Positions 1 through 17,647 of a DNA stretch of 44,410 nt are shown here, one piece after another. The position numbers were made by a program, and so were the translations under genes. The notes under the pieces were generated by a model. That model made no database searches. It was not told the origin of the DNA and saw only the letters and a list, made by a program, of their open reading frames with translations. How positions within the stretch are numbered: position 1 is the stretch's first letter; each line of letters opens with the position of its first letter. The stretch comes from Candidatus Thiodiazotropha taylori (GTDB lineage: Bacteria > Pseudomonadota > Gammaproteobacteria > Chromatiales > Chromatiaceae), in NCBI GenBank assembly GCA_019100305.1, contig JAHRHW010000001.1, positions 1-44,410 on the forward strand. The letters run 5' to 3'.

Positions 1-894
1 AGCCTGCTGGTCACCCTGCACAAGGAGGCCTGGGGTGGCGAAAAATTCTTTCAACTGTTGCAAAAGCTTCTGCAGAATCCGGCCAAGAATCTTGAGCTGC
101 TGGAGTTGATGTATGTCTGTCTCTGTTTCGGTTTTGAAGGTCGCTATCGCCCTCTTCCGGATGGCTATGCACAACTGCAGACCCTGAAAGACAATCTCTA
201 CCGCACCCTGCGCAACCACCGGGATGAGTATGAACGGGATCTCTCAGGACACTGGCAGGGAGAACCACTGAAACAGAATGCTCTGGTTCAATATGTGCCA
301 CTTTGGGTGGTGATGGCGATATCCGGTGTGGTCCTGATGTTGATGTTCTCCGGGTTCAGCCTCAGCCTGAATGTAAAATCCGATCCGGTACACGCCGAAC
401 TGCACAACATTGCCCGAAATGTACAAACGGTGGTTGAACGTGCCCCGCCGCCGCCTCCCAAACCGGAACTTTCACTCAGGGTTCTGCTCGCCAATGAGAT
501 CACTCAAGGATTGGTCAGCGTTGCGGAAAATCACCTGGAGGGTACGGTCAGAATTGCCGGGGACGGTCTGTTCGCTTCAGGCAAAGTGGCGGTCAACAGT
601 CAATTCCTGCCACTACTGAATCGTATCGCAGCGGCAATGGATAGACTCGAGGGGCAGATTGTGGTGGTCGGTCATACTGACAACATTCCCATACGCAGTC
701 TTCGCTACCCCTCCAACTGGCACCTCTCGAGGGCACGTGCTGAATCCGTGGCCAAACTGTTGGCGCTGGATTTAAGCCAACCTGCAAGAATTCAGAGTGA
801 AGGGCGCGGCTCGGCAGAGCCCCTGGCATCCAATGACACAAAAGAGGGACGTGCACGTAACAGACGTGTGGAGATCACTCTTGTAAAACAATAG
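1..894 (+). CDS. tssL: T6SS membrane-complex protein TssL/DotU fused to C-terminal OmpA/MotB peptidoglycan-binding domain (5'-truncated by window edge)
   Basis: Frame 1 is open from base 1: SLLVTLHKEAWGGEKFFQLL is the DotU signature, followed by LCFGFEGRYR and one TM helix (VPLWVVMAISGVVLMLMFSGF). OmpA-like motifs VVGHTDN, NWHLSRARAESV and RARNRRVEI follow. Lies directly upstream of tssM. Confidence 0.95.
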   Translation, partial: SLLVTLHKEAWGGEKFFQLLQKLLQNPAKNLELLELMYVCLCFGFEGRYRPLPDGYAQLQTLKDNLYRTLRNHRDEYERDLSGHWQGEPLKQNALVQYVPLWVVMAISGVVLMLMFSGFSLSLNVKSDPVHAELHNIARNVQTVVERAPPPPPKPELSLRVLLANEITQGLVSVAENHLEGTVRIAGDGLFASGKVAVNSQFLPLLNRIAAAMDRLEGQIVVVGHTDNIPIRSLRYPSNWHLSRARAESVAKLLALDLSQPARIQSEGRGSAEPLASNDTKEGRARNRRVEITLVKQ

Positions 895-908
895 GTATTG
901 CGTACACC

Positions 909-3900
909 ATGCAGGCAATATTGAGAATCATAAAGAACCGCTGGTTTGTCGCCATCCTGGGACTGATCGCCATCTCGTTGATCATCTGGTTGATCGGTCC
1001 CCTGTTTGCCTTTGCCGGCAGTGAACCCCTTGCCTCACCCATGGCCAGACTGATTGCCATCGGCGTGATCATTCTGCTCTGGGCAGCCAATCAGGCCAGA
1101 CGGCTGTTTGCAGCACGCAAGAAAAACCAGCAGATGCTGGAATCCGTGGTCGGTCAGAAAGAGCAGACCTCCGTATCAACCCAGGAGTCGGCAGAAGAGG
1201 TGCAGATTCTTGGGCAACGGCTGGACGATGCCATCCGCATACTCAAAGAGTCGAAACTGGGGGGTAAACAGGATAGCCAATATCTCTACCAGCTCCCCTG
1301 GTATATGTTCATCGGTCCTCCAGGAAGCGGTAAAACCACCGCCCTGCTCAACTCAGGGCTGCACTTTCCACTGGCGGACAAGCTGGGTAACGATGCGGTA
1401 CAGGGTATCGGTGGAACCCGCAATTGTGACTGGTGGTTCACCGATGATGCGGTGCTGTTGGATACCGCAGGCCGCTATACCACCCAGGACAGTTACGAAG
1501 AGGTGGACCGGGCCGCCTGGATGGGCTTTCTCGATCTGCTGAAAAAACATCGCAAACGTCGACCGATCAATGGCGCTCTGGTGGCGATCAGCGTGGAGGA
1601 CATTCTACAGCTGACCGACATTGAGAGAATCAATCATGCTAAGGCGATACGCCTGCGGGTCAAAGAGCTGATCGATCACTTCGGTATCCGCTTCCCGATC
1701 TACGTTCTGTTCACCAAGTGCGACCTGCTGGCAGGCTTCAATGAATTTTTCGAAAACCTGAGTCGGGATGAGCGTAACCAGGTCTGGGGAATGACCTTTC
1801 CGCTCAACGAAAAAGGCAGTCAGGATGATGTAATCAACCACTTCAAGGGTGAGTTCAAAGCCCTGGAACAGCGTATCGATGCCCGCCTGATGGACCGTCT
1901 TGAACAGGAACGGGATGTCAAGCGCCGGGTTTTGATCTACTCCTTTCCGCAACAGTTCAGCGCACTGCGTGAAGCAGCGGAGACCTTCCTCCAGGAAGCG
2001 TTCAGCGAGAACCGTTTCCAGGAAACCCCAATGGTCAGGGGTATCTACTTCACCAGCGGCACACAGGAAGGCACGCCGATCGATCGTCTGCTTGGATCGA
2101 TGGCCCAGGAGTTTGGCCTTAATCGTCAGATCGCCCCAGCCTTTTCCGGTACCGGTCGCAGTTTTTTCATCAACCGACTGTTCAAGGACTTGATATTTGC
2201 CGAATCCCATCTGGCCGGTATCAATACCCGGGTTGAGAAACAGCGGGCCTGGTTACAACGGATTGCCTATGTGGGTGCCATCTCCCTGGCTCTGCTGGCC
2301 GGCATCGCCTGGTTTACCAGCTACAGCCGCAATCAAAGCTATATCGATCAGGTTGCCATTCAGGCCAATGCCGCAGACGAGAAAGTCAACGCAGTTGCCG
2401 CTGACGATCTGACATTGACCAATGTGGTACCCGCCCTGGAACTGGTGCGTCGGATTCCCGGCGGCTATGAGGATCAGGAGAAAGAGATCCCCTGGCTGAT
2501 GGGGCTCGGCCTCTACCAGGGTGATAAGCTGGGCAGTGAGGCGATCAATGCCTACCACAACAGCCTAAAGAACCTGTTCCTGCCACGCATTATTCTCAGC
2601 CTTGAAAATCAATTGAGTCGGCAGGGTAACAACCCTGACTATCTGTATGAGGCGCTCAAGGTCTATCTGATGTTCGATGATAAGGAGCATTACGATGCCG
2701 AGACTGTGAAGACCTGGATGCTGTTGCAATGGCAGCTCAGCCTGCCTGGTGGGGAAAATGCCCAGGCCCGTCAGGCCCTGGCGGGCCATCTGGACGCCCT
2801 GCTTAGCCAGATGCCGATGCCGCCAACCATCCCGTTGGATGAGGCGCTGATCAGCCGGGTACGCAATGACCTGCTGAGAGTACCGCTGGCAGACCGGGTC
2901 TACGACCGGATGAAACGCACTACCGCCGGTGGTTCGATCGCCGCCTTGCGACTGACCCAGGAGATTGGCCCCGATGCGGAACTGGTCTTCAGTCGACGCT
3001 CCGGTGAACCACTGGATAAGGAGATCCCCAGCCTGTTTACCTATGAGGGATATCATAAACTGTTCCTCAAGGATCACCTGTCGATCGCCAATAAGTTGCT
3101 CGAGGAGAAGTGGATCCTCGGCCCTGATCTGGAAAAGATCATCGGCAAGACCGACCTGGCCAGGCTCAGCAGCCGGGTCAAGGATCTCTATTACGCCGAG
3201 TACATCCGTATTTGGGAACAGCAACTGGCTGACATACGGGTGAAACCGTTCAACAATATGCGTCAGGCTGTAGAGGTGTTGAATGTTCTTTCCGGGCCTA
3301 CCTCGCCACTACGCCGCTATCTGAAGCTGGTGCAGGAGCAGACCACCCTCTCCCGCCTGCCGGGAGGTGCACAGAAGGCAGCTGAGCTGGCGGCTGAGCA
3401 TGGATCGGGCATTACCCGGCAGTTGGCTTCAATCCTTCAGGTATCACCCGATGAGAGCCAGCAAGAACCTGAAAAGCAGCTGCTGAGTACACCAGTGGAT
3501 CAACACTTTGCTGATCTGAACCGAATGATCAATGCTCAGGAGGGTGAGCAGGCTCCGCTGGAGAGAACCCTGGAGATGCTCAACGAACTGTATGCCCACA
3601 TGAACTCCATTGCCTCTGCCGGCAATCAGTCGAGTCAGGCATTCAACGCTGCACGGGATCCTGCATCCGGCGGTGTGATCAGCCGCCTGAAACTGGAGGC
3701 GCAGCGTCAACCCGGCCCACTGGCCGATATGATCAATACCCTGGCGGACGGCAGTTCCAATCTGACCGTCTCGGGAGTAAGAAGTCATCTCAACTCAGTC
3801 TGGAACACCCAGCTTCTGCCTTTCTGTCAGCGCAGTCTGTCGGGACGCTATCCACTGGAGCGCAACAGCGTACGCGAAGTGACGATCAGTGATTTTGGAC

Positions 3901-4487
3901 GATTCTTTGGTCCAGGCGGAATGATGGAGAACTTTTTCAATACCTACCTGATCGACTTCGTCGATACCTCACGCAGAGTTTGGCGTTGGAATGCGGCTGG
4001 CAATAAAACCCTGGGCATACCCACCAGCACCCTGCGACAGTTCCAACGGGCAGCGGTGATCCGGGACGCCTTCTTCAGCGGCAGCAGCCCAGAGCCGAAG
4101 ATCAACTTCGAAATCAAACCGCTGAGCATGGACACCACGATCACTCAGATCACCCTGTTGCTCAATCAGCAGCGGGTCAGATACAACCATGGGCCGACCC
4201 GTTGGAACCGACTCACCTGGCCGGATGATTCCGGCATCAGCGACGCCAAGATCCTGCTTGCACCACCGGCAGGCAATAAACCCTCCGGTCTGACTGAGGA
4301 TGGACCCTGGGGCTGGTTCCGCATGATCGATCAGGCTGCAAGTGAAGCCACCAACACCCCTGAAACCATCAACGTGACCTTTGATGTGGGTGGTCGACAA
4401 TCCCGTTTTGCACTACGCGCAAGTGGTGCACTCAATCCATTCCAGTTAAAAGAATTGGCAGACTTCCGGTGTCCGAACAGACTTTGA
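909..4487 (+). CDS. tssM: T6SS membrane-complex protein TssM/IcmF
   Basis: 1192 aa with N-terminal TM helices, YQLPWY..IGPPGSGKTT Walker A, GTRNCDWWFTDDAVLLDTAGRY, RGIYFTSGTQEG, a third TM helix and C-terminal GPWGWFR. Confidence 0.97.
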   Translation: MQAILRIIKNRWFVAILGLIAISLIIWLIGPLFAFAGSEPLASPMARLIAIGVIILLWAANQARRLFAARKKNQQMLESVVGQKEQTSVSTQESAEEVQILGQRLDDAIRILKESKLGGKQDSQYLYQLPWYMFIGPPGSGKTTALLNSGLHFPLADKLGNDAVQGIGGTRNCDWWFTDDAVLLDTAGRYTTQDSYEEVDRAAWMGFLDLLKKHRKRRPINGALVAISVEDILQLTDIERINHAKAIRLRVKELIDHFGIRFPIYVLFTKCDLLAGFNEFFENLSRDERNQVWGMTFPLNEKGSQDDVINHFKGEFKALEQRIDARLMDRLEQERDVKRRVLIYSFPQQFSALREAAETFLQEAFSENRFQETPMVRGIYFTSGTQEGTPIDRLLGSMAQEFGLNRQIAPAFSGTGRSFFINRLFKDLIFAESHLAGINTRVEKQRAWLQRIAYVGAISLALLAGIAWFTSYSRNQSYIDQVAIQANAADEKVNAVAADDLTLTNVVPALELVRRIPGGYEDQEKEIPWLMGLGLYQGDKLGSEAINAYHNSLKNLFLPRIILSLENQLSRQGNNPDYLYEALKVYLMFDDKEHYDAETVKTWMLLQWQLSLPGGENAQARQALAGHLDALLSQMPMPPTIPLDEALISRVRNDLLRVPLADRVYDRMKRTTAGGSIAALRLTQEIGPDAELVFSRRSGEPLDKEIPSLFTYEGYHKLFLKDHLSIANKLLEEKWILGPDLEKIIGKTDLARLSSRVKDLYYAEYIRIWEQQLADIRVKPFNNMRQAVEVLNVLSGPTSPLRRYLKLVQEQTTLSRLPGGAQKAAELAAEHGSGITRQLASILQVSPDESQQEPEKQLLSTPVDQHFADLNRMINAQEGEQAPLERTLEMLNELYAHMNSIASAGNQSSQAFNAARDPASGGVISRLKLEAQRQPGPLADMINTLADGSSNLTVSGVRSHLNSVWNTQLLPFCQRSLSGRYPLERNSVREVTISDFGRFFGPGGMMENFFNTYLIDFVDTSRRVWRWNAAGNKTLGIPTSTLRQFQRAAVIRDAFFSGSSPEPKINFEIKPLSMDTTITQITLLLNQQRVRYNHGPTRWNRLTWPDDSGISDAKILLAPPAGNKPSGLTEDGPWGWFRMIDQAASEATNTPETINVTFDVGGRQSRFALRASGALNPFQLKELADFRCPNRL

Positions 4488-5263
4488 ACTCATTGCAAAA
4501 CGAGGACTTTCCAGGCCTCTATGGTAAAATTCCATCACTGGGGGATTTTGTCACCCGCCGGCTTCCACGCGGCTTCATCGCCCCTTGGGAGACCTGGATG
4601 CAGGAGGCGATCGCCAACAGCCGGGAGCAGCTGGGGGACTTCTGGCTGGATAACTATTTGACCAGTCCGATGTGGCGTTTCGCGCTCTCTCCAGGCATCT
4701 GTGGCGAACAGGGGTGGGCAGGAATCCTGATGCCCAGCGTCGATCGGGTTGGTCGCTACTACCCGTTTACCCTCGCAGCAAAGCTCGATCCGAAGTTTAA
4801 TCTTTTTCTGTTCATGGAGGAGTCGGAGAGTTGGTTTGCCCGTTTGGAAGAGCTTGCCCTATCCTGCCTGGAGGATGATTTCCAGATGGATGCGTTGGAG
4901 CAACAGCTGCGACAGCTCAGCACACCAACGGCGGAGCGTGAAGAGCTGTCTCACCCGGATGCACCCGTTACACCGCTGAACAATGCCTGGCACGCTCAGT
5001 TGCAGGAACAGTCCGCATTGCGTGGTCTCTATCCCCTGTTCATGCCCCACCTGATGAAAAAACTGTTGTTTGCCTACAGCATTTGGTGGACACAGGGTTC
5101 AGAGCGGATCTCCCCCTCCCTGTTGATCTGTCAGGGACTGCCACAGATAAGAGGAGCCAGTGCCTTGATCGATGGCGCTTGGACAGAGCATGGCTGGGAA
5201 GAGATAGAAACCGGTGCCTACAGCATGGGATTCGCCACTTCAGAAACACCAGAATCCTTATGA
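4469..5263 (+). CDS. tagF: T6SS-associated regulator TagF/ImpM
   Basis: Motifs GLYGKIPSLGDFV and MPSVDRVGRYYPF. GTG start overlaps the tssM 3' end, and the gene sits between tssM and pppA. Confidence 0.93.
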   Translation: MSEQTLNSLQNEDFPGLYGKIPSLGDFVTRRLPRGFIAPWETWMQEAIANSREQLGDFWLDNYLTSPMWRFALSPGICGEQGWAGILMPSVDRVGRYYPFTLAAKLDPKFNLFLFMEESESWFARLEELALSCLEDDFQMDALEQQLRQLSTPTAEREELSHPDAPVTPLNNAWHAQLQEQSALRGLYPLFMPHLMKKLLFAYSIWWTQGSERISPSLLICQGLPQIRGASALIDGAWTEHGWEEIETGAYSMGFATSETPESL

Positions 5264-6015
5264 CCCAGAATCGATTCTATTGGGTCTCTGCCCACTTGAC
5301 TGACAAGGGTAAAGTGCGCAGCATCAATGAAGATGCCTGCCTCGATCGGGCTGACCTGGGAATCTGGGTGGTTGCCGATGGCATGGGTGGGCATGCTGCC
5401 GGGGATCTGGCCTCAGGCATGATTGTGAGTGAATTGAAATCGCTCGACCCAGGTAACTCAATTGGTGAGCTTGCCGGAAACGTTGAACAAAAACTGCATC
5501 AGGTCAATCAACACCTGCTGTTGGAATCCCATCAACGTGGCGGTGAGATCATCGGCTCAACGGTGGTTACCCTGCTTGCCTATGATGGATATTGCATCTA
5601 TCAATGGGCTGGAGACAGCCGTATCTATCTCTATCGTCGCGGAAATCTGAAACAACTCAGCCGCGATCACAGCCAGATTGAGGAGATGATCGAACAGGGT
5701 CTGGTCACCTCCGATCAAGCCGAGCAATCATCCATCGCCAACTACATCACCCGGGCAGTTGGTGCTGCAGAGGTTCTGGAGTTGGATGCGGAGATGGTGG
5801 AGCCCTGTGACGGTGACCTGTTTTTACTCTGCAGTGATGGCCTGAACAAAGAGGTCAAGGATGCTGAAATCGCTGAAATTCTAGGGCGTTACAGCTTTCA
5901 GGATGCAATACAACAACTCATTAGCCTGGCCATGGACAGAGGCGCCAGAGATAATGTCACACTGGTGATGGTGCAAGCGAAAGCCACACAAAACCTGCAG
6001 CCCGAAGAAATCTAA
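5260..6015 (+). CDS. pppA: PP2C-family Ser/Thr phosphatase PppA
   Basis: Motifs RSINEDA, VADGMGGHAAG, WAGDSRIY, LLCSDGL and ARDNVT. True start is probably ATG 5260 (ATGA overlap with the tagF stop), not 5083. Confidence 0.92.
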   Translation: MTQNRFYWVSAHLTDKGKVRSINEDACLDRADLGIWVVADGMGGHAAGDLASGMIVSELKSLDPGNSIGELAGNVEQKLHQVNQHLLLESHQRGGEIIGSTVVTLLAYDGYCIYQWAGDSRIYLYRRGNLKQLSRDHSQIEEMIEQGLVTSDQAEQSSIANYITRAVGAAEVLELDAEMVEPCDGDLFLLCSDGLNKEVKDAEIAEILGRYSFQDAIQQLISLAMDRGARDNVTLVMVQAKATQNLQPEEI

Positions 6016-6080: not shown

Positions 6081-7442
6081 GTGAAAGAGGTAACCAGCTT
6101 TCGGGATTTCTGCAAATTCCTATTCATTGTCATTTCTGTGCTGGCTCTGAGCGCCTGTCAGTTGACCGGGCCTAAAAAAGAGGCTCAACCGGTAGCCATG
6201 GAGCCGGAACCAATAGAAGAGACTATTCCTCCACCAACCGATTCACTGACGCCCAATCAGCGGGTACGAAAAGCGCTACAGCATCTGCAGCAGGGTGACT
6301 ATGAGAATGCCCGCAACCAGTTGAACTGGGCCTTGATGGATGATCCCGATCATAAGCGTGCCAACCACCTGCTGGAGCAGATGGATGCTGACCCGATTGA
6401 GTATCTTGGACTTAAAAACTTCTATTACGATGTGCAGCCGGGTGATTCGCTATCCCTGATTGCCAAGAATTTTCTCGATGACCCTTATAAATTCGTGATT
6501 CTTGCCAGATACAACGACCTGGACAATCCCAGCAAGCTGGCTCCGGGTCAACGTATTCGTGTGCCGGGGATTATGCGGGAAAAGCCGAAAATCAAGGCAA
6601 AACCCAAAACCAAGCGGAAGCCTGATGTGGTATTGACTGAGGAACCCGTAAAGAGTGAAGCCAAAACCGACACCTCTACCGACCCGGCTGCCACATCTTC
6701 TCAGGCAGATGAGCCAGTGCCGTCAACAGCGACTGAACCGGTTACAGAAGTCGACCCACCTTCAGAGACAGCGCTGGCAGTGGAGCCAGAACCTGAACTC
6801 GAACAGTTGGAAGAGACAGCGAACACACTTCCTGAGAGCCCCCCAAACAGTGATGACACACTGAGCTCTGCCCGGCAGTTGCATGCTGAAAAAGACCTGC
6901 CAGCAGCCATCTATCTGCTGGAGAGTGAAAACAGCAGTAACCCAGAAGCTTCAGAGGTACGTACCCAGCTGGCAAGTTACTACACCGAGTATGCAAACCA
7001 ATTGATCAGAGAGGATGACTTGGAAAGTGCCCGGCAGACCTTGGAAAAGCTGATCATCCTTGATGCCTCCGACAACAACGCTATCAATCAACTCATCTAT
7101 GTGGAAGACAAACTTGAAGCCCGCAAGCTGCTGCAAAAAGGAGAGAATGAAGAGCGTGGTGGACAGTATCAAACTGCCTATCGCACTTATGGCCAGGTAT
7201 TGACCTATGATCCTGACAATCAATCCGCACAAGAGTCTCAAATCAGAGTGAGAAATCAACTGACTGACAGTTACCATCGTCAGGCCATGCAGCTGTTTCG
7301 CCGACAGGAACTGGATGAAGCCATCGGATTCTGGAATAAGATCCTTGAACTTGATCCAAATCATTCGCTCGCCCCGGGTTACAAAGCACGCGCCCTGGAG
7401 ATGAAGCAACAGCTTCAAAAGATAGACTCGAAGCCCAATTGA
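6081..7442 (+). CDS. Lipoprotein with TPR, LysM, Pro/Glu/Thr-rich linker and C-terminal TPR repeats
   Basis: Lipobox LALSA-C. LysM segment YDVQPGDSLSLIA...NDLDNPSKLAPGQRIRVP. TPR-like ends VLTYDPDNQSA and ILELDPNHSLA. Confidence 0.85.
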   Translation: MKEVTSFRDFCKFLFIVISVLALSACQLTGPKKEAQPVAMEPEPIEETIPPPTDSLTPNQRVRKALQHLQQGDYENARNQLNWALMDDPDHKRANHLLEQMDADPIEYLGLKNFYYDVQPGDSLSLIAKNFLDDPYKFVILARYNDLDNPSKLAPGQRIRVPGIMREKPKIKAKPKTKRKPDVVLTEEPVKSEAKTDTSTDPAATSSQADEPVPSTATEPVTEVDPPSETALAVEPEPELEQLEETANTLPESPPNSDDTLSSARQLHAEKDLPAAIYLLESENSSNPEASEVRTQLASYYTEYANQLIREDDLESARQTLEKLIILDASDNNAINQLIYVEDKLEARKLLQKGENEERGGQYQTAYRTYGQVLTYDPDNQSAQESQIRVRNQLTDSYHRQAMQLFRRQELDEAIGFWNKILELDPNHSLAPGYKARALEMKQQLQKIDSKPN

Positions 7443-10258: not shown

Positions 10259-11185
10259 CTATTGGGCCTGGCGGTTTTCAAACGTATCGATCCTCAGTTG
10301 AGTCCGTTTATCATTGGGATCAAACTTTAATGCACTCTTCCAAAGTTCGATCGCATTGACCGGTTCGGAACGGACACTTCTCAATCCTAACAAATAGAGC
10401 TCCTTAGCAAACTCTTTTCGAGCAGCCAACAGCTTCTTCAGAAATTTATCATCATTGTTGAGTGACTCTTCTGCTGCAGCCAAGTGGTCCAGCGAACTGT
10501 CATAATCCGATTCTCCAAAGGAAGCACGAGCCTGAACAATCCGAACATTCACAAGCATCTCTTTGAGCTCCGTGTCACTTGGATACTTTGTAATATGTTT
10601 CTCGAGTTCTGCAATATAACCCTCAACATCATTAGCTCGGTTTTCCGCCTGTAAAATGGCCTGACGTGAATAGATATATCCCTCATCTTCTGTCTGTCGA
10701 TTCTTTTTACGAAGACTGCTCTTACGATAACGCTGGGAGAGCGCCACTTTCTGCTTCATTTTCTTATGCAGTTGCTTCCTATTGATATCACGCAATCTGT
10801 CAAAGGCAGCTCTGTAATTTGGATCGAGGGTCAGTATTTTAAAATACAACACCTCCGCACTTTGCAATTTACCTCGCGCATACTTCTTCTCGGCTATCGA
10901 CATCAATTTATCTGTTTTCTCTGCGATCAGTTTTTCCAGCCTCTTGACCTCTCTGCCCGGTTTGGTAGTGTCTACTGATACTGTACGTGCAATACGATAT
11001 TCCATCAGTGCACTGTACAGATCCCCCTTCTGCTCATGCTTGGCTGCCGATAGCATCAAACGCTTTGGATCCGAGTAACTTCCTGGATTACTACTCTTTA
11101 CCACTTGTCTGTTTGCACACCCCAGACTGGATAAAATAAACAGAGTGACAAGTAACAGCGAAAAAGTGTGCAGAAAACTGATCAC
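10259..11185 (-). CDS. TPR-repeat lipoprotein
   Basis: Lipobox LSSLG-C and TPR-like segments KILTLDPNYRAA and WKSALKFDPND. Start is 4 nt downstream of the deacetylase stop. Confidence 0.8.
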   Translation of the reverse strand: MISFLHTFSLLLVTLFILSSLGCANRQVVKSSNPGSYSDPKRLMLSAAKHEQKGDLYSALMEYRIARTVSVDTTKPGREVKRLEKLIAEKTDKLMSIAEKKYARGKLQSAEVLYFKILTLDPNYRAAFDRLRDINRKQLHKKMKQKVALSQRYRKSSLRKKNRQTEDEGYIYSRQAILQAENRANDVEGYIAELEKHITKYPSDTELKEMLVNVRIVQARASFGESDYDSSLDHLAAAEESLNNDDKFLKKLLAARKEFAKELYLLGLRSVRSEPVNAIELWKSALKFDPNDKRTQLRIDTFENRQAQ

Positions 11186-11189
11186 AACA

Positions 11190-12263
11190 TCACCGGGTCT
11201 GGAAGGTTTTCAGCTTTGCAACAAAATCGTCCATGCCCCGGTCTCCAAAGATCATGCTTCTGTTCAGTAGATAAGGATAGTTAAATGCTGCATTGGCAGT
11301 GGGCTGAACTGTCAGACCGAGCAATAGACCATTTGCCTTTAACTCTTCAATCACCTGAGGGTTAGTATCGCCAAATGGATAGGCATAGTATTTTGGTGCT
11401 TTTCCCAATGTACTTTCCAATTTACGGCTGGGTATGCGAACTTCGTCCGTGATTCTCTTGCGATACTCAGATTTACTTTCCCCAATGCCATTGAGCGCGA
11501 GATTCGAATGAGTCTTGGAGTGTGGTTGTAAACTGATCAAACCACTGGCATTCATGGCTTTCAGTTCTTTTGTTTTCAATCCGCCGTTATTCATATAATC
11601 ACTGTAGACAAACACCGTTGCAGGAAAATTGAACTTTTTCAGCAGTGGATAGGCGATTGTATAGATGGATCGATGACCATCATCTATGGTTAACACCACT
11701 GATCGCTTTGGCAAGCCACGCTCACCTTTCAAAAAACCATACAGATCCTCAAGGCGAATCACTCTGTAGTCATGCTGCTTGAGATAGGCGAGCTGCTGTT
11801 CGAACTGTTCCGCACTGACTTCCAGTCGACCGCCCTTGTTACCAAAACGGTGATAGCACAATATGGGAACTGTCTGATAACCTTCAAATTCGAAGCCTAT
11901 CGGATTGTCATTCTGCAGTGGAATAATGATCTCATTTCCAGATGCAATGGATCGAGGCTCGTTGGCATCTTCGATCAGCCAGCCGAGACTCTCATCACCA
12001 AGATAGCGACGTGCAAGCTCACTGGCATCCTCATTCCCCACCCTGAGTACGACAAATTCGCTATCCCGCGCCAGAATTTCAGTTGTGACAGGACGTGACG
12101 AACAACCCGCACCCAACAAAAAGAAGAGTGAGAGAAATAAACTGGCAATCAGTAACTTCGATGGTTGATCAGCGCTCATTGACGTCGCTGTTTGCAGTCT
12201 GCCAGATTGATTCACAGACCATGCGCCTTTAACTGTGGCCGTAGGCCGAAGAGAGAGTCTCAT
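11190..12263 (-). CDS. Polysaccharide deacetylase (CE4/NodB fold) lipoprotein with N-terminal degenerate LysM-like domain
   Basis: Motifs VPILCYHRF, VLTIDDG, HSKTH and YAYPFG. Lipobox LLGAG-C. LysM-like segment ASELARRYLGD...WLIEDAN...GNEIIIP. Alternative start ATG 12179. Confidence 0.88.
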   Translation of the reverse strand: MRLSLRPTATVKGAWSVNQSGRLQTATSMSADQPSKLLIASLFLSLFFLLGAGCSSRPVTTEILARDSEFVVLRVGNEDASELARRYLGDESLGWLIEDANEPRSIASGNEIIIPLQNDNPIGFEFEGYQTVPILCYHRFGNKGGRLEVSAEQFEQQLAYLKQHDYRVIRLEDLYGFLKGERGLPKRSVVLTIDDGHRSIYTIAYPLLKKFNFPATVFVYSDYMNNGGLKTKELKAMNASGLISLQPHSKTHSNLALNGIGESKSEYRKRITDEVRIPSRKLESTLGKAPKYYAYPFGDTNPQVIEELKANGLLLGLTVQPTANAAFNYPYLLNRSMIFGDRGMDDFVAKLKTFQTR

Positions 12264-12269
12264 AACAGC

Positions 12270-12540
12270 CTAGGGCCTGTTAACACTAATCCAATCGGCC
12301 CTGCTGGGGCTATTTTTTCGTCCAGCAAGGCAGAATGAGCGACGTGTAGTTGTTCTACATGAGCGAATGATAACGCCGCTGGGCGGAAAAATAGCCCCAG
12401 CCCTCCGGGTTGCGCCTGAAAAAGCGCCACTCGGCGTTGCTCGTCGTTCATTTGGAATCACCAAACCTCTCTCCTCGCGCCTTGATTGGCGCTTTTTCAG
12501 GCACAACAGGGCCAATTGGATTAGTGTTAACAGGCCCTAG
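12270..12540. mobile_element. MITE family A, full-length copy flanked by CTAG
   Basis: Perfect 26-bp terminal inverted repeat including CTAG (CTAGGGCCTGTTAACACTAATCCAAT ... ATTGGATTAGTGTTAACAGGCCCTAG), extending further with mismatches. Two long internal hairpins, no transposase. The right CTAG contains the kinase stop codon. Confidence 0.9.
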
Positions 12541-14342
12541 TTTCTTTTTATGATTCTTGTCGCATCATCCATATCATCGTCTAGCTCCTGACTATCATCC
12601 ACGCCGATTACATCATTCAAAGGCTGCTTTGCTGGCGCAATCCGTGTCTCGTCATCATCTTCGGGCTCTGGCTCAATTTGTGGTTGGGTCTGAGTTGGCG
12701 TTTGTGTATCGAGGTCGGATTGGGTCTCATCCTCTGTCACTACCTCTGCCTGCTGCTTGTTCTGCAACTCCTCTGCCATCCTATTGTAATCTTTAAACAT
12801 CAAGCCCAGTTCGTCATTCCGTTCCTGGCGTATCCGATATGCATAGTTACCCTGACTGATATGCCGCATCGCCTTTCTGAGGATTTTCATCGGCAGCGTG
12901 ATACCAGTCGCCAACAGATAGGCCACCACAACCACAGTCAGAACAACAGCCAGCAAAAGACCGAGCATGGTATAAAAAGTCAGATCTGCCGCAGCTATCA
13001 GTGGGGTTTGAGAGAGACCTAACTGTACACCACCGATTGTTTTATTCTGAAAGATCAGCGGTGCTTGAAAATCAAAGACTTCCTCTCCCTGCCACTCGGC
13101 TTCGGTGATAACGATTCCCCCCTCCTCTCTCAACACCTCGCCAGAGAGGGATTGTTCCAGAGTTTCACCCACCTCATCCAGTGAAGTACTTGCCCGTAAT
13201 ACCCGCCTGTGATCAAAGATCTTCAGGTAACTGATCTGTTGACGATCGTTGATCTCCTGTACAAAAGTCTCAATAGCCACCCAGTCCTGTATCAATACAG
13301 CTTCTGCGCTTTCAATGGCGATAAAATCAGCCAAAGAACCACCTGAGTCCAAGGTCAGTTCCGTCATTGTCTCTACTTGCTTTTGATAGACCAGATAGGA
13401 ACCTAAAATCATAGCCAGCGAGACGACCATTGCCATCACTGCCGTCCATTTGATACGCAACGGCAGGATCTTTGATTCATTGATATGCTGCTGTTTTTCA
13501 TCGATCTCATGGATTACACGGCGCAGCGCATCGGCAAGTTCCTTACCTGTTTGAAAACGATTGGCAGGATTCTTGTTGAGCAACTTCTCGACAATCGCTT
13601 TCAGACTTTGAGGTATGTCCGTCTTCTTGATATCGATCGGTGCCGGCTCTTCCTGTACGATCTTCATCAACAGGGAGGTCAGGGTCTCCGACACAAACGG
13701 TTTAACACCCGTAAGTAATTGATAGAGAATCACACCGAGTGAAAAAAGGTCGGATCGACCATCCACTTGCTGCCCTTCAACCTGTTCCGGTGACATATAT
13801 TGAGGCGTACCGAGGACAGAACCTATCCTGGTTTTATGCTCTTTGTTCGGAGCATCGATCCTGGCGATTCCGAAATCCGTTATACGCAGTGAGTGACCAT
13901 AACCGGGGGAGATGATGTTACCGGGTTTGACATCCCGATGAACAATTCCCCGGGCATGGGAATAGTCGAGCGCTTCGGCCAATTGGATGCCGTAGATAAC
14001 CACATCCCGGGTTGCAATGTCCTGCTCACTATCCATGATCTCCTCAAGGGTTTGTCCCTCAAGAAACTCCATGGCGATATAGGGTCCCTGTTCCACTTCG
14101 CCGACATCGAAAATGGTAACAATATTGGGGTGGGTCAGCTTGCCTGCAGCTTTGGCCTCCTGCAGAAAGCGATATCGATATTCCGGATCAACAGCACACT
14201 CACCACGCAGCAGCTTGATGGCCAGGGGCCGATTGATTTCAGGATCAAAAGCTTTGTAGACAATCGACATTGCGCCTTCGCCTACCTCTTCCACCAACTG
14301 GAATCTTCCGATCGATTCCGGCATAGGATATTGGTTATCCAA
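12537..14342 (-). CDS. Hanks-type Ser/Thr receptor kinase: kinase - TM - extracytoplasmic domain - TM - HAMP - acidic tail
   Basis: Kinase motifs GEGAMSIVY, AIKLL, HRDVKPGN, DFGIAR, GTPQYMSPEQ and DLFSLG. Two TM helices, then HAMP TLPMKILRKAMRHISQGNY...NDELGLMFKDYNRMAEEL. TTG start preceded by AGGAGAGG. Confidence 0.93.
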   Translation of the reverse strand: MDNQYPMPESIGRFQLVEEVGEGAMSIVYKAFDPEINRPLAIKLLRGECAVDPEYRYRFLQEAKAAGKLTHPNIVTIFDVGEVEQGPYIAMEFLEGQTLEEIMDSEQDIATRDVVIYGIQLAEALDYSHARGIVHRDVKPGNIISPGYGHSLRITDFGIARIDAPNKEHKTRIGSVLGTPQYMSPEQVEGQQVDGRSDLFSLGVILYQLLTGVKPFVSETLTSLLMKIVQEEPAPIDIKKTDIPQSLKAIVEKLLNKNPANRFQTGKELADALRRVIHEIDEKQQHINESKILPLRIKWTAVMAMVVSLAMILGSYLVYQKQVETMTELTLDSGGSLADFIAIESAEAVLIQDWVAIETFVQEINDRQQISYLKIFDHRRVLRASTSLDEVGETLEQSLSGEVLREEGGIVITEAEWQGEEVFDFQAPLIFQNKTIGGVQLGLSQTPLIAAADLTFYTMLGLLLAVVLTVVVVAYLLATGITLPMKILRKAMRHISQGNYAYRIRQERNDELGLMFKDYNRMAEELQNKQQAEVVTEDETQSDLDTQTPTQTQPQIEPEPEDDDETRIAPAKQPLNDVIGVDDSQELDDDMDDATRIIKRN

Positions 14343-14621: not shown

Positions 14622-14721
14622 CTAAGGGTAGTTAACACTAATCGAGTTTCTTCTGTAATGCCTTGTTGGACGCCAAAACAGCTCCAGCAGGACTTATTGG
14701 AATAATGTTAACAGGCCCAAG
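14622..14721. mobile_element. Degenerate, internally deleted, inverted copy of MITE family A
   Basis: 14659-14721 matches the reverse complement of 12270-12332 at 52/63 positions without gaps (manual count). 14622-14643 matches the terminal repeat at 18/22. Confidence 0.8.
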
Positions 14722-14805: not shown

Positions 14806-15594
14806 ATGACAGACTCTTTCGACATCCCAAGACTGATAGAACTCCGAAAGCTTACCCGCTCAGTATCTGAACGGATTGAGACACAACTCAAGTCCTATTT
14901 GTCTACCCTGGCACCACTTTTTTCACCTCAACCGATCCTCGGCGAATACATCCGCGGGGGCTCCAAATCCTCAGTCAAAGGGGCAGAGAAGAACTTTCAA
15001 GAGCTGAAAAAGCACTACCTCACCATTGCCAGGCAAAAGCCCTACTCACTGGACAGTGATATCTCACCACCGTTGGATATTTTTGCAGCCACGCCCGCAT
15101 TGACACCGGTCACATACCCCTACACAGCTGAAAATGAGGGTAAATCCGCAGAGCTCACGGTCACCTCCCCTCTGCAGTGGATACTCTCCTATCCGGGTAT
15201 GGCGCCAAATCAGATAGCCGATCTGTTGAAAGGCAACCGAAGTCAAATTCAGGATGAGTTGGCACATACCTTACTGCAGTGCCTGACCCTGAACCTTGTC
15301 CTGGAGAAACAGACCGGCCTGAGGAACCTGCTCAAGGATCTGCGTTTTAAACTGGAGACGATTCAAATGGACAGCCTGGGTGATCTGCCTGTGTTACTGA
15401 TCTCTTGTCCGATTTCCACTGAATTGCCCTCAGATGACGTAATCATTCAGAATACGGAAATCTCTGGGATTCCATCTTTTGAAGAGATTATCAAAATCAA
15501 TGACATCAGGAGCATGTCTGACCCGCTACGGGAAACACTGCTCGGGATAACCCAGGAAGTGACACCTGAGATCTATCAGGAACTCGTCTCTTAG
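14806..15594 (+). CDS. Soluble hypothetical protein, divergent from the kinase operon
   Basis: 262-aa ORF with normal composition, no signal peptide or TM, and no motif I can name with confidence. Confidence 0.8.
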   Translation: MTDSFDIPRLIELRKLTRSVSERIETQLKSYLSTLAPLFSPQPILGEYIRGGSKSSVKGAEKNFQELKKHYLTIARQKPYSLDSDISPPLDIFAATPALTPVTYPYTAENEGKSAELTVTSPLQWILSYPGMAPNQIADLLKGNRSQIQDELAHTLLQCLTLNLVLEKQTGLRNLLKDLRFKLETIQMDSLGDLPVLLISCPISTELPSDDVIIQNTEISGIPSFEEIIKINDIRSMSDPLRETLLGITQEVTPEIYQELVS

Positions 15595-16429: not shown

Positions 16430-17647
16430 TTATCTGTAATTGTAGTAGCCTTGATAGGGGCCAGGACCGTAGGGTCCGTAACCCGGGTTAGGATTGCGCC
16501 ACATACGTGGCGGTGGAGGCATCATCGCTTCGTGCAGCTCTCTCTCAGCCTGCATTCTGTTCTGCATGGCTTCCATTTCCGCCTGTGCCGCATCCCTCAA
16601 CTCATCGAACTCTTTAAGGATTTTTGTAACAGACTCTGTGTGCATTTCATGCACACTCTGCTGTTGATCATCTTGAGCAGAAGCAGTTTCCTGGCCACTC
16701 TGTTGCGCAGCTGCCCCTGTCTCAGCCGATGACTGATCCGCTTCACCTGATGCCTCTGCTGCTGCCGGTTGGCTTAACACTTTGACCTCGGGTGACATGC
16801 TCGACCCTGAGACCAGATTACCCGAACTTTCGCCAGAAACATCTGCAGCAGAAGGCGCCTCACTCTGACCACTCTCAGCTTCAGCCACACTCGCTTGCTG
16901 ATTGTCTGTGCCGGCTTCACCGGTAGCCGCTGCTGGTGCGGATGAGGTGGCAGATTGATCTGTCGTGGACGAAGCGGCAGCCTGATCTGATGTAGATGAG
17001 GCGTCTGAATCCGAGGCTGTGACCTCAACCTGAGTGGAATCCGAAGCTTCGCCTGTTGATTGGTCAACCGGGCTTTTCGCCAGTGAACGGATATACATGA
17101 ATCCCAGAATAATAATAACCAGCCAGAAAATGACTTTTACCCAAAAGCCACCTGAGCTCTTTGTTGTTGTCGACATGGATGTCTCCTCCGAAGTTGACTC
17201 TTTCTCTTCTATTTGTTTCTGTACCACCACATTTGATGATGGTGTCTTATTGCTCTCAGCGGCTGTGGTTGAAGTGGAGGCTTGAGCACCCGCCGCAGCC
17301 ACGGCGGTCGGTGTCGCAGCTTTAGCTTCAGTAGCGGCTTCCGGCTTGTCAGTTTGCGGGGTTGCTGCAGTTTCCGTGCTTGTCGCTTTAGCTTCAGTGC
17401 CGACTTCCGGCTTTTCAGTCGGTGCGGCTGTTGCGATTTTCGCACTTGCAGCTTTACTACTCTCTGTCTTTTTGGCTGAGACCTTCTTCTTGGCAGCGGC
17501 TTTTTTCTTTGCTGTCGCTTTCTTCTTGGCTACCTTTTTCTTGGCAACTTTCTTTTTCGCAGCTTTCTTTTTAACTGTTGTTGCTGTCTTTTGAGGTTGT
17601 TTTTCTACGCTTTCATCAGCGTTGTTAGTCTCATCAGCCATCTTCAC
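16430..17647 (-). CDS. Bitopic membrane protein with Lys/Ala-rich histone H1-like N-terminus, low-complexity linker and Pro/Gly/Tyr-rich tail
   Basis: KKKAAKKKVAKKKVAKKKATAKKKAAAKKK, one TM (FWVKVIFWLVIIILGFMYI), a Ser/Ala/Glu-rich stretch, a helical segment and the tail PPPPRMWRNPNPGYGPYGPGPYQGYYNYR. Confidence 0.75.
   Translation of the reverse strand: MKMADETNNADESVEKQPQKTATTVKKKAAKKKVAKKKVAKKKATAKKKAAAKKKVSAKKTESSKAASAKIATAAPTEKPEVGTEAKATSTETAATPQTDKPEAATEAKAATPTAVAAAGAQASTSTTAAESNKTPSSNVVVQKQIEEKESTSEETSMSTTTKSSGGFWVKVIFWLVIIILGFMYIRSLAKSPVDQSTGEASDSTQVEVTASDSDASSTSDQAAASSTTDQSATSSAPAAATGEAGTDNQQASVAEAESGQSEAPSAADVSGESSGNLVSGSSMSPEVKVLSQPAAAEASGEADQSSAETGAAAQQSGQETASAQDDQQQSVHEMHTESVTKILKEFDELRDAAQAEMEAMQNRMQAERELHEAMMPPPPRMWRNPNPGYGPYGPGPYQGYYNYR

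Follow-up and report, generated by a model that had tools for sequence, protein, structure and literature searches.

A conserved family of bacterial proteins combines a Hanks-type Ser/Thr kinase domain with a membrane-spanning Cache-HAMP receptor module. We consider this family to be real, and it is apparently undescribed. The member that we studied is from Candidatus Thiodiazotropha taylori (assembly GCA_019100305.1, contig JAHRHW010000001.1). It is encoded at 12537..14342, on the minus strand of a stretch of 44,410 nucleotides which was analyzed as a whole and which we will call the window; this open reading frame has a TTG start and 601 codons for amino acids. In Ca. Thiodiazotropha, the kinase is encoded beside fha, tagF, pppA, and a type VI secretion system (T6SS) cluster, which is the gene context of PpkA/TagE. 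On balance, we favor the view that it fills the role of PpkA for the adjacent T6SS, by predicted phosphorylation of threonine motifs in its own tail and in TssL that would recruit Fha. Our best reading is that it is a two-pass functional stand-in for PpkA; we do not file it as PpkA itself because it fails the single-pass trait. (Articles are cited by PMC number, and except for the main text of PMC2877116, our statements refer to the parts of those articles that were available.)

Domain architecture

From the N- to the C-terminus, the protein has a Hanks kinase domain, a transmembrane helix (TM1), a single Cache domain, a second transmembrane helix (TM2), a HAMP domain, and an acidic tail. The original prediction had this order, with an extracytoplasmic domain in the middle, and it is confirmed by Pfam, hydropathy, AlphaFold2, and the fold of the sensor. 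The kinase domain (aa 15–265, 13548..14300; all features of this gene are on the minus strand) matches Pfam's Pkinase with E = 7e-50. The glycine loop, K43, E62, HRDVKPGN, DFG, and GTPQYMSPE are all intact, and K43, E62, D137, N142, D156-G158, T179, and E186 are invariant in a 34-row alignment. The activation-loop threonine, Thr171, is present in 59 of 72 distant rows. Judging from these catalytic motifs, the protein is an RD-type Hanks Ser/Thr kinase.

A predicted helix (aa 266–291, 13470..13547) runs from the kinase domain to TM1 (aa ~300–320, 13383..13445) via a 3-residue break. TM1 is a hydropathy peak, and in the AlphaFold2 model one continuous predicted helix (295–350) includes TM1 and the first helix of the Cache domain. 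The extracytoplasmic region (13005..13382) matches sCache_3_2 at aa 338–448 (30.8 bits versus a cut-off of 28.4 in Pfam) and lies between the two transmembrane helices; TM2 (aa ~455–480, 12903..12980) is another hydropathy peak. Directly after TM2 comes HAMP (PF00672; aa 477–527, 12762..12914), and this assignment survived the profile search (40.7 bits versus a cut-off of 25). Its residues G498, R508, D510, E511, and G513 are kept in 89–97% of distant rows. The tail, residues 531–601, has 22 acidic (D/E) and just 5 basic (K/R) residues among 71. The AlphaFold2 model of the full protein, from a 99-row alignment, has a mean pLDDT of 88.4 and a pTM of 0.71. In the model, the HAMP helix reaches residue 545, and pLDDT is under 50 for most of residues 547–601.

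Folded alone, the sensor region has a pLDDT of 92 and matches PDC/Cache sensors, as had been suspected: CitA (Z = 15.4, rmsd 2.9, 121 aligned residues), WalK (Z = 14.6), DctB (Z = 13.3), and a LapD ortholog's output domain (Z = 11.9). (A sequence search with the sensor region against the PDB gave no match below E = 0.07, and among the Foldseek matches listed for the full model there were only kinases.) Because the best fold matches include the citrate/dicarboxylate sensors CitA, DcuS, and DctB, we considered that the Cache domain might bind a metabolite such as a carboxylate, with HAMP as a passive dimerization clamp and the lipoproteins and tail described below as accessories. Family members that lack a tail would fit this. 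However, none of the fold matches listed exceeds 22% sequence identity, and the family-specific linkage to LysM lipoproteins and the enrichment of a motif in the tail would be left unexplained. We think it quite unlikely that the protein is such a small-molecule receptor.

The closest solved structures to the kinase domain are of PknB from M. tuberculosis (E = 2e-60; ~40% identity by Foldseek). Unlike the PknB/Stk1 kinases, this protein has no PASTA repeats, and its match to NF033483 covers the kinase domain only (303.6 bits versus a cut-off of 450). Also unlike those kinases, it has no long disordered juxtamembrane linker between the kinase domain and TM1 in the AlphaFold2 model. The input module, a Cache domain between two transmembrane helices followed by HAMP, is that of histidine kinases and cyclases such as CitA, DcuS, WalK, and YfiN. 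But in those receptors the enzyme follows HAMP, while here the enzyme precedes TM1 and there is no HisKA, HATPase, or GGDEF after HAMP. (Pfam finds no HisKA or HATPase after HAMP in this protein or in its relatives.) A HAMP without a catalytic output is also found in LapD and in stand-alone proteins with the same input module: the Atlas has clusters of sCache_3_2/HAMP proteins of about 250 amino acids, and SMP_2 is a Cache module severed from its output (PMC4822843). In contrast to LapD, the module in our protein is joined to a kinase whose catalytic motifs are intact, and there is no GGDEF-EAL domain.

Covariation between the kinase and HAMP domains (99 rows, effective number 70) was judged to be mostly noise because near-invariant columns are among the top pairs. 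A few pairs between kinase helix 245–254 and HAMP, at z of 2.8–3.6, are a lead only.

The family is widespread and is not truncated

None of 67 close relatives, which were found with residues 280–601, has an output domain after HAMP. Similarly, none of 53 distant relatives has a Pfam domain there, and 47 of these have a HAMP match with E ≤ 1e-4. (The 53 were picked from the best 150 representatives of a profile search; 50 span kinase to HAMP and three have split matches.) The expectation that homologs would lack a C-terminal output domain was thus borne out. The family is found in alpha-, beta-, and gammaproteobacteria. Two of the 53 distant members, P0149 and P0157, have a PP2C or Hpt domain fused N-terminal to the kinase.

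For comparisons of gene context, we kept 80 genome loci: 5 from Ca. Thiodiazotropha, 27 from distant relatives with the full architecture, and 48 controls that share the kinase domain only. An alignment included 24 of the 27 distant loci, and left out L054, whose kinase was overlooked by the ORF calling, L048, whose kinase was called too long, and L088, which appears to duplicate P0091. A quick tree of kinase domains, which contains no reference PpkA, placed 29 family rows on one side of a branch and 19 controls on the other (SH-aLRT = 94). This is consistent with a single fusion event, and it upholds the original idea that a sensor of the two-component type was grafted onto a Hanks kinase.

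A MITE-like inverted-repeat element of ~270 bp, flanked by CTAG, lies at 12270..12540 and begins exactly at the stop codon of the kinase, which raised the possibility that a fusion to a histidine kinase or a cyclase had been cut short. But in a relative (G003), the element is absent from this site, the kinase has the same stop codon, and the next ATG follows after 6 nt, so the stop codon is native. Furthermore, at all 19 of the Ca. Thiodiazotropha loci that we read, the kinase ends in a similar tail. A search among longer proteins for a relative with an output domain gave one match in 3,233 candidates, to a generic HAMP/cyclase protein with 21% coverage, which we take as weak evidence. Truncation is refuted by the orthologs without the element, and we give it practically no chance. 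As for the element itself, a copy lies between the stop codon of the kinase and the start of the deacetylase gene at 3 of the 19 loci. The genome has 115 BLAST pieces of this family and 86 matches to its end motif, mostly flanked by TAG, and the family also occurs at 14659–14721 in the window.

A search among shorter proteins for paralogs without a kinase domain gave 13 matches. These are 56–97% identical and are mostly named as kinases or as partial, and we read them as fragments.

We found no description of this architecture in the literature that we searched, which mostly excluded subscription journals. The available part of PMC4822843, by Upadhyay et al., counts 2 Ser/Thr kinases among 2,499 sCache_3_2 proteins and does not describe them; its supplements may list them. 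The main text of PMC2877116 mentions neither HAMP nor Cache.

Threonine motifs in the tail

The original prediction described what follows HAMP as only a disordered acidic tail. The tail is disordered in the model, but it is not featureless: it has two conserved threonine motifs, as identified by alignment. DDAT595RII (12549..12569) is the predicted site of phosphorylation and FHA docking, and DDDET566RI (12639..12659) is a less conserved copy. D592, T595, and I597 of the first of these are nearly invariant among close relatives, whose tails cannot otherwise be aligned, apart from this terminal D-[DE]-x-T-[RM]-I.

The pattern [DE]xTx[ILVMF] is present in the tails of 24 of 27 close rows (mean of 4.9 if shuffled) and of 39 of 72 distant rows (8.2 if shuffled, with a maximum of 19 in 2,000 shuffles), although the pattern was written after the tails had been viewed and eight patterns were tried. 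With serine in place of threonine, the distant rows are at background (10 of 72, versus 8.7 if shuffled). A hydrophobic residue at T+3, the classical determinant of FHA binding, is present in 25 of 27 close rows but is weak in the distant rows (15 of 72, versus 8.0 with a maximum of 16). The other 33 distant tails lack the motif; 13 tails are under 25 amino acids, and some of these may be cut by the ends of contigs. A genome-wide scan for the motif was uninformative, with hits in 46 of 5,278 frames that are mostly due to chance.

TssL from the same genome has a similar sequence at its N-terminus, GDRTVIRPRP, and some distant kinases have tails that nearly copy it (DADRTVIRPR, DGERTLIRPR, and DFDRTLIRPP). 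Of 15 loci that have a T6SS cluster or a T6SS-type Fha, 11 have the motif, versus 2 of 9 other loci, but the grouping was assigned afterwards and related loci are not independent. The Fha of the same genome keeps the GR, SxxH, and NG segments, which we take to be its pThr-binding motifs. There is a precedent in Agrobacterium, where phosphorylation of Thr14 of TssL depends on PpkA and Fha binds the phosphorylated site, DLP-pT14-VVEI (PMC3953482). The TssL of Ca. Thiodiazotropha has the same kind of site, an acidic residue-x-Thr-hydrophobic, near its N-terminus; unlike in Agrobacterium, the kinase's own C-terminal tail also bears a copy. The tail motif is predicted to be a docking site for an FHA domain once it is phosphorylated. 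If so, the claim that there is no output downstream of HAMP stands for enzymatic domains but probably does not stand for outputs of other kinds. (A similar acidic motif, DPDRTVVIKP, occurs in an FHA protein of genome G000, contig C397:4905-5681.)

The adjacent type VI secretion system

The plus strand of the window begins with the 3' part of tssL (1..894), whose N-terminal part, like fha, is on another contig of this genome (C501). It is followed by tssM (909..4487) and tagF (4469..5263) and by a gene for a PppA-like PP2C phosphatase (5083..6015, though the true start is probably later than the listed TTG). Directly after pppA is a gene for a lipoprotein with LysM and TPR segments (LysM-TPR; 6081..7442). 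These genes are 5–14 kb from the kinase. In closed or nearly closed genomes of relatives, the order is clpV-fha-tssJ-tssK-tssL-tssM-tagF-pppA-LysM-TPR, then variable cargo, and then the kinase operon on the opposite strand. The T6SS link, like the tail motif, the partner lipoproteins, and the FHA and PP2C genes, was no part of the original prediction.

Across 25 genomes of Ca. Thiodiazotropha, the kinase is found in 21 and TssM in 22; 21 have both and 3 have neither. In 16 of the 21 genomes, one contig has both the kinase and tssM, 8–38 kb apart and on opposite strands. The sole genome with TssM and without the kinase is G006, where the flanking tpx gene is at the end of a contig, so the absence may be an assembly gap. 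The three genomes without either may stem from just one or two events. In two of these (G014 and G021), by comparison to G004, the kinase operon and its divergent neighbor are gone, LysM-TPR and the T6SS are gone, and the genes in between are kept.

In the Ca. Thiodiazotropha genomes that we mapped, there is no open reading frame for a kinase between fha and LysM-TPR, and in most of them, no kinase is nearer to the Fha, TagF, and PppA of the cluster. A second, single-pass kinase is encoded ~30 kb beyond fha (L165:11604-13145 in G004; also on contig C240 of G000). It has an N-terminal DDEATRL, and its gene is beside genes for a hydrolase, a Sel1/caspase-domain protein, and autotransporter-like proteins. 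We rejected it as the T6SS-specific kinase because it is present in G014 and G021, which lack the T6SS (with one internal stop codon in G021). In another genome (G008), an 1,107-amino-acid protein with a kinase domain is encoded between the T6SS and the kinase operon (L034:7951-11274).

Outside the genus, the link to the T6SS is looser. In Hahella, the kinase gene comes after tssM-tagF-pppA-hcp-LysM-TPR, but multi-gene T6SS clusters are within the flanks that were retrieved at just 3 of 27 distant loci. Among these 27 genomes, which are mostly MAGs of unstated completeness, 10 have a T6SS sheath gene and 9 have a match to TssM. No sheath gene was found in the other 17, and we therefore think that the module also serves other outputs.

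Conserved neighbors of the kinase

Downstream of the kinase, on the same strand, is a gene for a predicted lipoprotein with a LysM-like segment and a CE4 polysaccharide deacetylase domain (11190..12263). The deacetylase has PgaB/IcaB-like motifs (LCYH, TIDDG, HSKTH, and YPFG), and motifs of the catalytic type are kept in 12 of 12 aligned deacetylases. A LysM-like N-terminal segment was found in 4 of these 12; it was not detected in the protein from the window, which does align to it. The third gene of the operon encodes a TPR protein (10259..11185, minus strand), which by eye is a lipoprotein, although the lipobox pattern did not match. The most family-specific neighbor is LysM-TPR: a LysM gene is beside the kinase at 19 of 27 distant family loci versus 1 of 48 control loci, and a CE4 deacetylase gene is at 14 of 27 versus 0 of 48, but the use of family members to build these profiles favors the contrast. 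Genes for FHA (22 of 27 versus 25 of 48) and PP2C (16 of 27 versus 23 of 48) are frequent beside any kinase. A predicted complex of the Cache domain with LysM-TPR scored 0.23, below the mark of 0.32, and we give this no weight either way.

Divergent from the kinase is a gene for a 262-amino-acid protein (14806..15594, plus strand) which has no match in Pfam, NCBIfam, or the Atlas. It was not found in the four Ca. Thiodiazotropha genomes without the kinase and is a candidate T6SS accessory. Another protein in the window (16430–17647, 405 amino acids) is of low complexity, with repeats rich in Lys and Ala, a hydrophobic segment in the center, and an end that is rich in Pro, Gly, and Tyr; it has no Pfam match.

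The FHA partners differ by locus and include T6SS-type Fha, double-FHA, cyclase-FHA, and FHA-SpoIIE proteins. At seven alphaproteobacterial loci (L055, L063, L071, L074, L085, L094, and L185), the cassette is EAL, LysM-TPR, kinase, T6SS-type Fha, and PP2C; in most of these genomes, we found no T6SS. Three betaproteobacterial copies (L049, L051, and L052) are transcribed divergently from a gene for a guanylate/adenylate cyclase-FHA protein; their tails are short and mostly without the motif.

This variety of FHA partners, the EAL-domain gene that often precedes the alphaproteobacterial cassettes, and the lack of a sheath gene in so many distant carriers would suit a general kinase module that monitors the envelope, whose substrates are not parts of the T6SS even in Ca. 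Thiodiazotropha and which merely shares a genomic island with it. We consider this unlikely, since G014 and G021 lack both blocks yet keep the genes between them, LysM-TPR immediately follows pppA, the motif in the tail matches that of TssL, and in most of the genomes mapped, no other kinase is nearer to the Fha, TagF, and PppA of the cluster.

We also considered that the protein might work in the other direction, as LapD does: LapD signals inside-out through its HAMP domain (PMC4359373). Phosphorylation of the tail or binding of FHA would switch HAMP, and the Cache domain would capture or release the deacetylase or the LysM-TPR lipoprotein, thereby remodeling the wall. This would account for a HAMP without an enzyme behind it, a LapD ortholog is among the fold matches, and a deacetylase with conserved catalytic motifs neighbors the kinase at about half of the distant loci. 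However, the other half (13 of 27) have no deacetylase, outside-in sensors score higher than LapD in the fold comparison, and a shared fold does not show function. Also, the tail motif is 40–70 disordered residues from HAMP, which would make it a poor lever. Inside-out signaling seems improbable to us.

Proposed mechanism

Our preferred reading remains that the kinase stands in for PpkA. In the known PpkA/TagE-PppA-Fha-TagF pathway, a membrane-bound Hanks kinase is likewise encoded beside fha, tagF, and pppA, and envelope proteins are candidate activators (PMC13584744, PMC6082577, PMC12607579). In the literature available to us, the inputs of this threonine phosphorylation pathway are TagQRST in P. 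aeruginosa, RtkS in Serratia, and TssW in Acidovorax. As the original prediction had noted, the PpkA proteins described so far have one transmembrane helix, with a periplasmic C-terminus (PMC12607579). In contrast, this kinase has two transmembrane helices, Cache and HAMP domains, and a cytoplasmic tail, and lipoproteins (LysM-TPR and CE4) are its candidate inputs. There is a precedent for coupling an outer-membrane lipoprotein to a receptor with this kind of Cache-HAMP module, namely YfiBNR (PMC3375315, PMC4887326).

We propose that the LysM-bearing lipoproteins report the state of peptidoglycan or of the envelope to the Cache domain, much as TagQRST, RtkS, and TssW act for single-pass PpkAs. 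The signal would descend through TM1, which is joined to the kinase domain by helix, and through TM2 to HAMP. HAMP domains are dimers, so the kinase would be a dimer as well, and HAMP, next to the two kinase domains, would be a clamp that can be switched. The kinase would autophosphorylate Thr171 and then phosphorylate the D-x-T-hydrophobic sites in its own tail (T595 and T566) and in TssL. Fha would dock on the phosphorylated sites of the tail and TssL and overcome TagF, and PppA would set the switch back. Where a lineage has no T6SS, the same input module would lead to other FHA proteins.

A more ambitious version of this proposal, which we hold only tentatively and consider rather doubtful, is that the family forms a new class of receptor. 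HAMP would regulate a Hanks kinase that precedes TM1, and the only output downstream of HAMP would be a tethered sequence that mimics the phosphosite of TssL. LysM lipoproteins that bind the wall would signal through Cache, HAMP would control whether the tail reaches the active site, and the tail, once phosphorylated, would capture Fha and pass it on to TssL.

Implications

Inputs to the phosphorylation switches of the T6SS have been described in few species, and for Serratia the signal is given as still unknown in the available part of PMC6082577. This receptor kinase would add a new type of input, whose parts can be tested. Lucinid (clam) symbionts are reported to express their T6SS (PMC11171427). 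(For 4 of the 17 RNA runs listed, against the contigs only, coverage was flat and included intergenic DNA; we therefore did not take it as expression.) The kinase is also a natural test of the role of HAMP where no enzyme comes after it, and the module is present in named strains, such as Hahella sp. CCB-MM4 and Sphingobium sp. TomTYG65, which may allow genetics. If the more ambitious version of our proposal is true, then the module would be a portable switch from peptidoglycan to FHA proteins, which fires the T6SS in lucinid symbionts and has been rewired to cyclases and phosphatases elsewhere.
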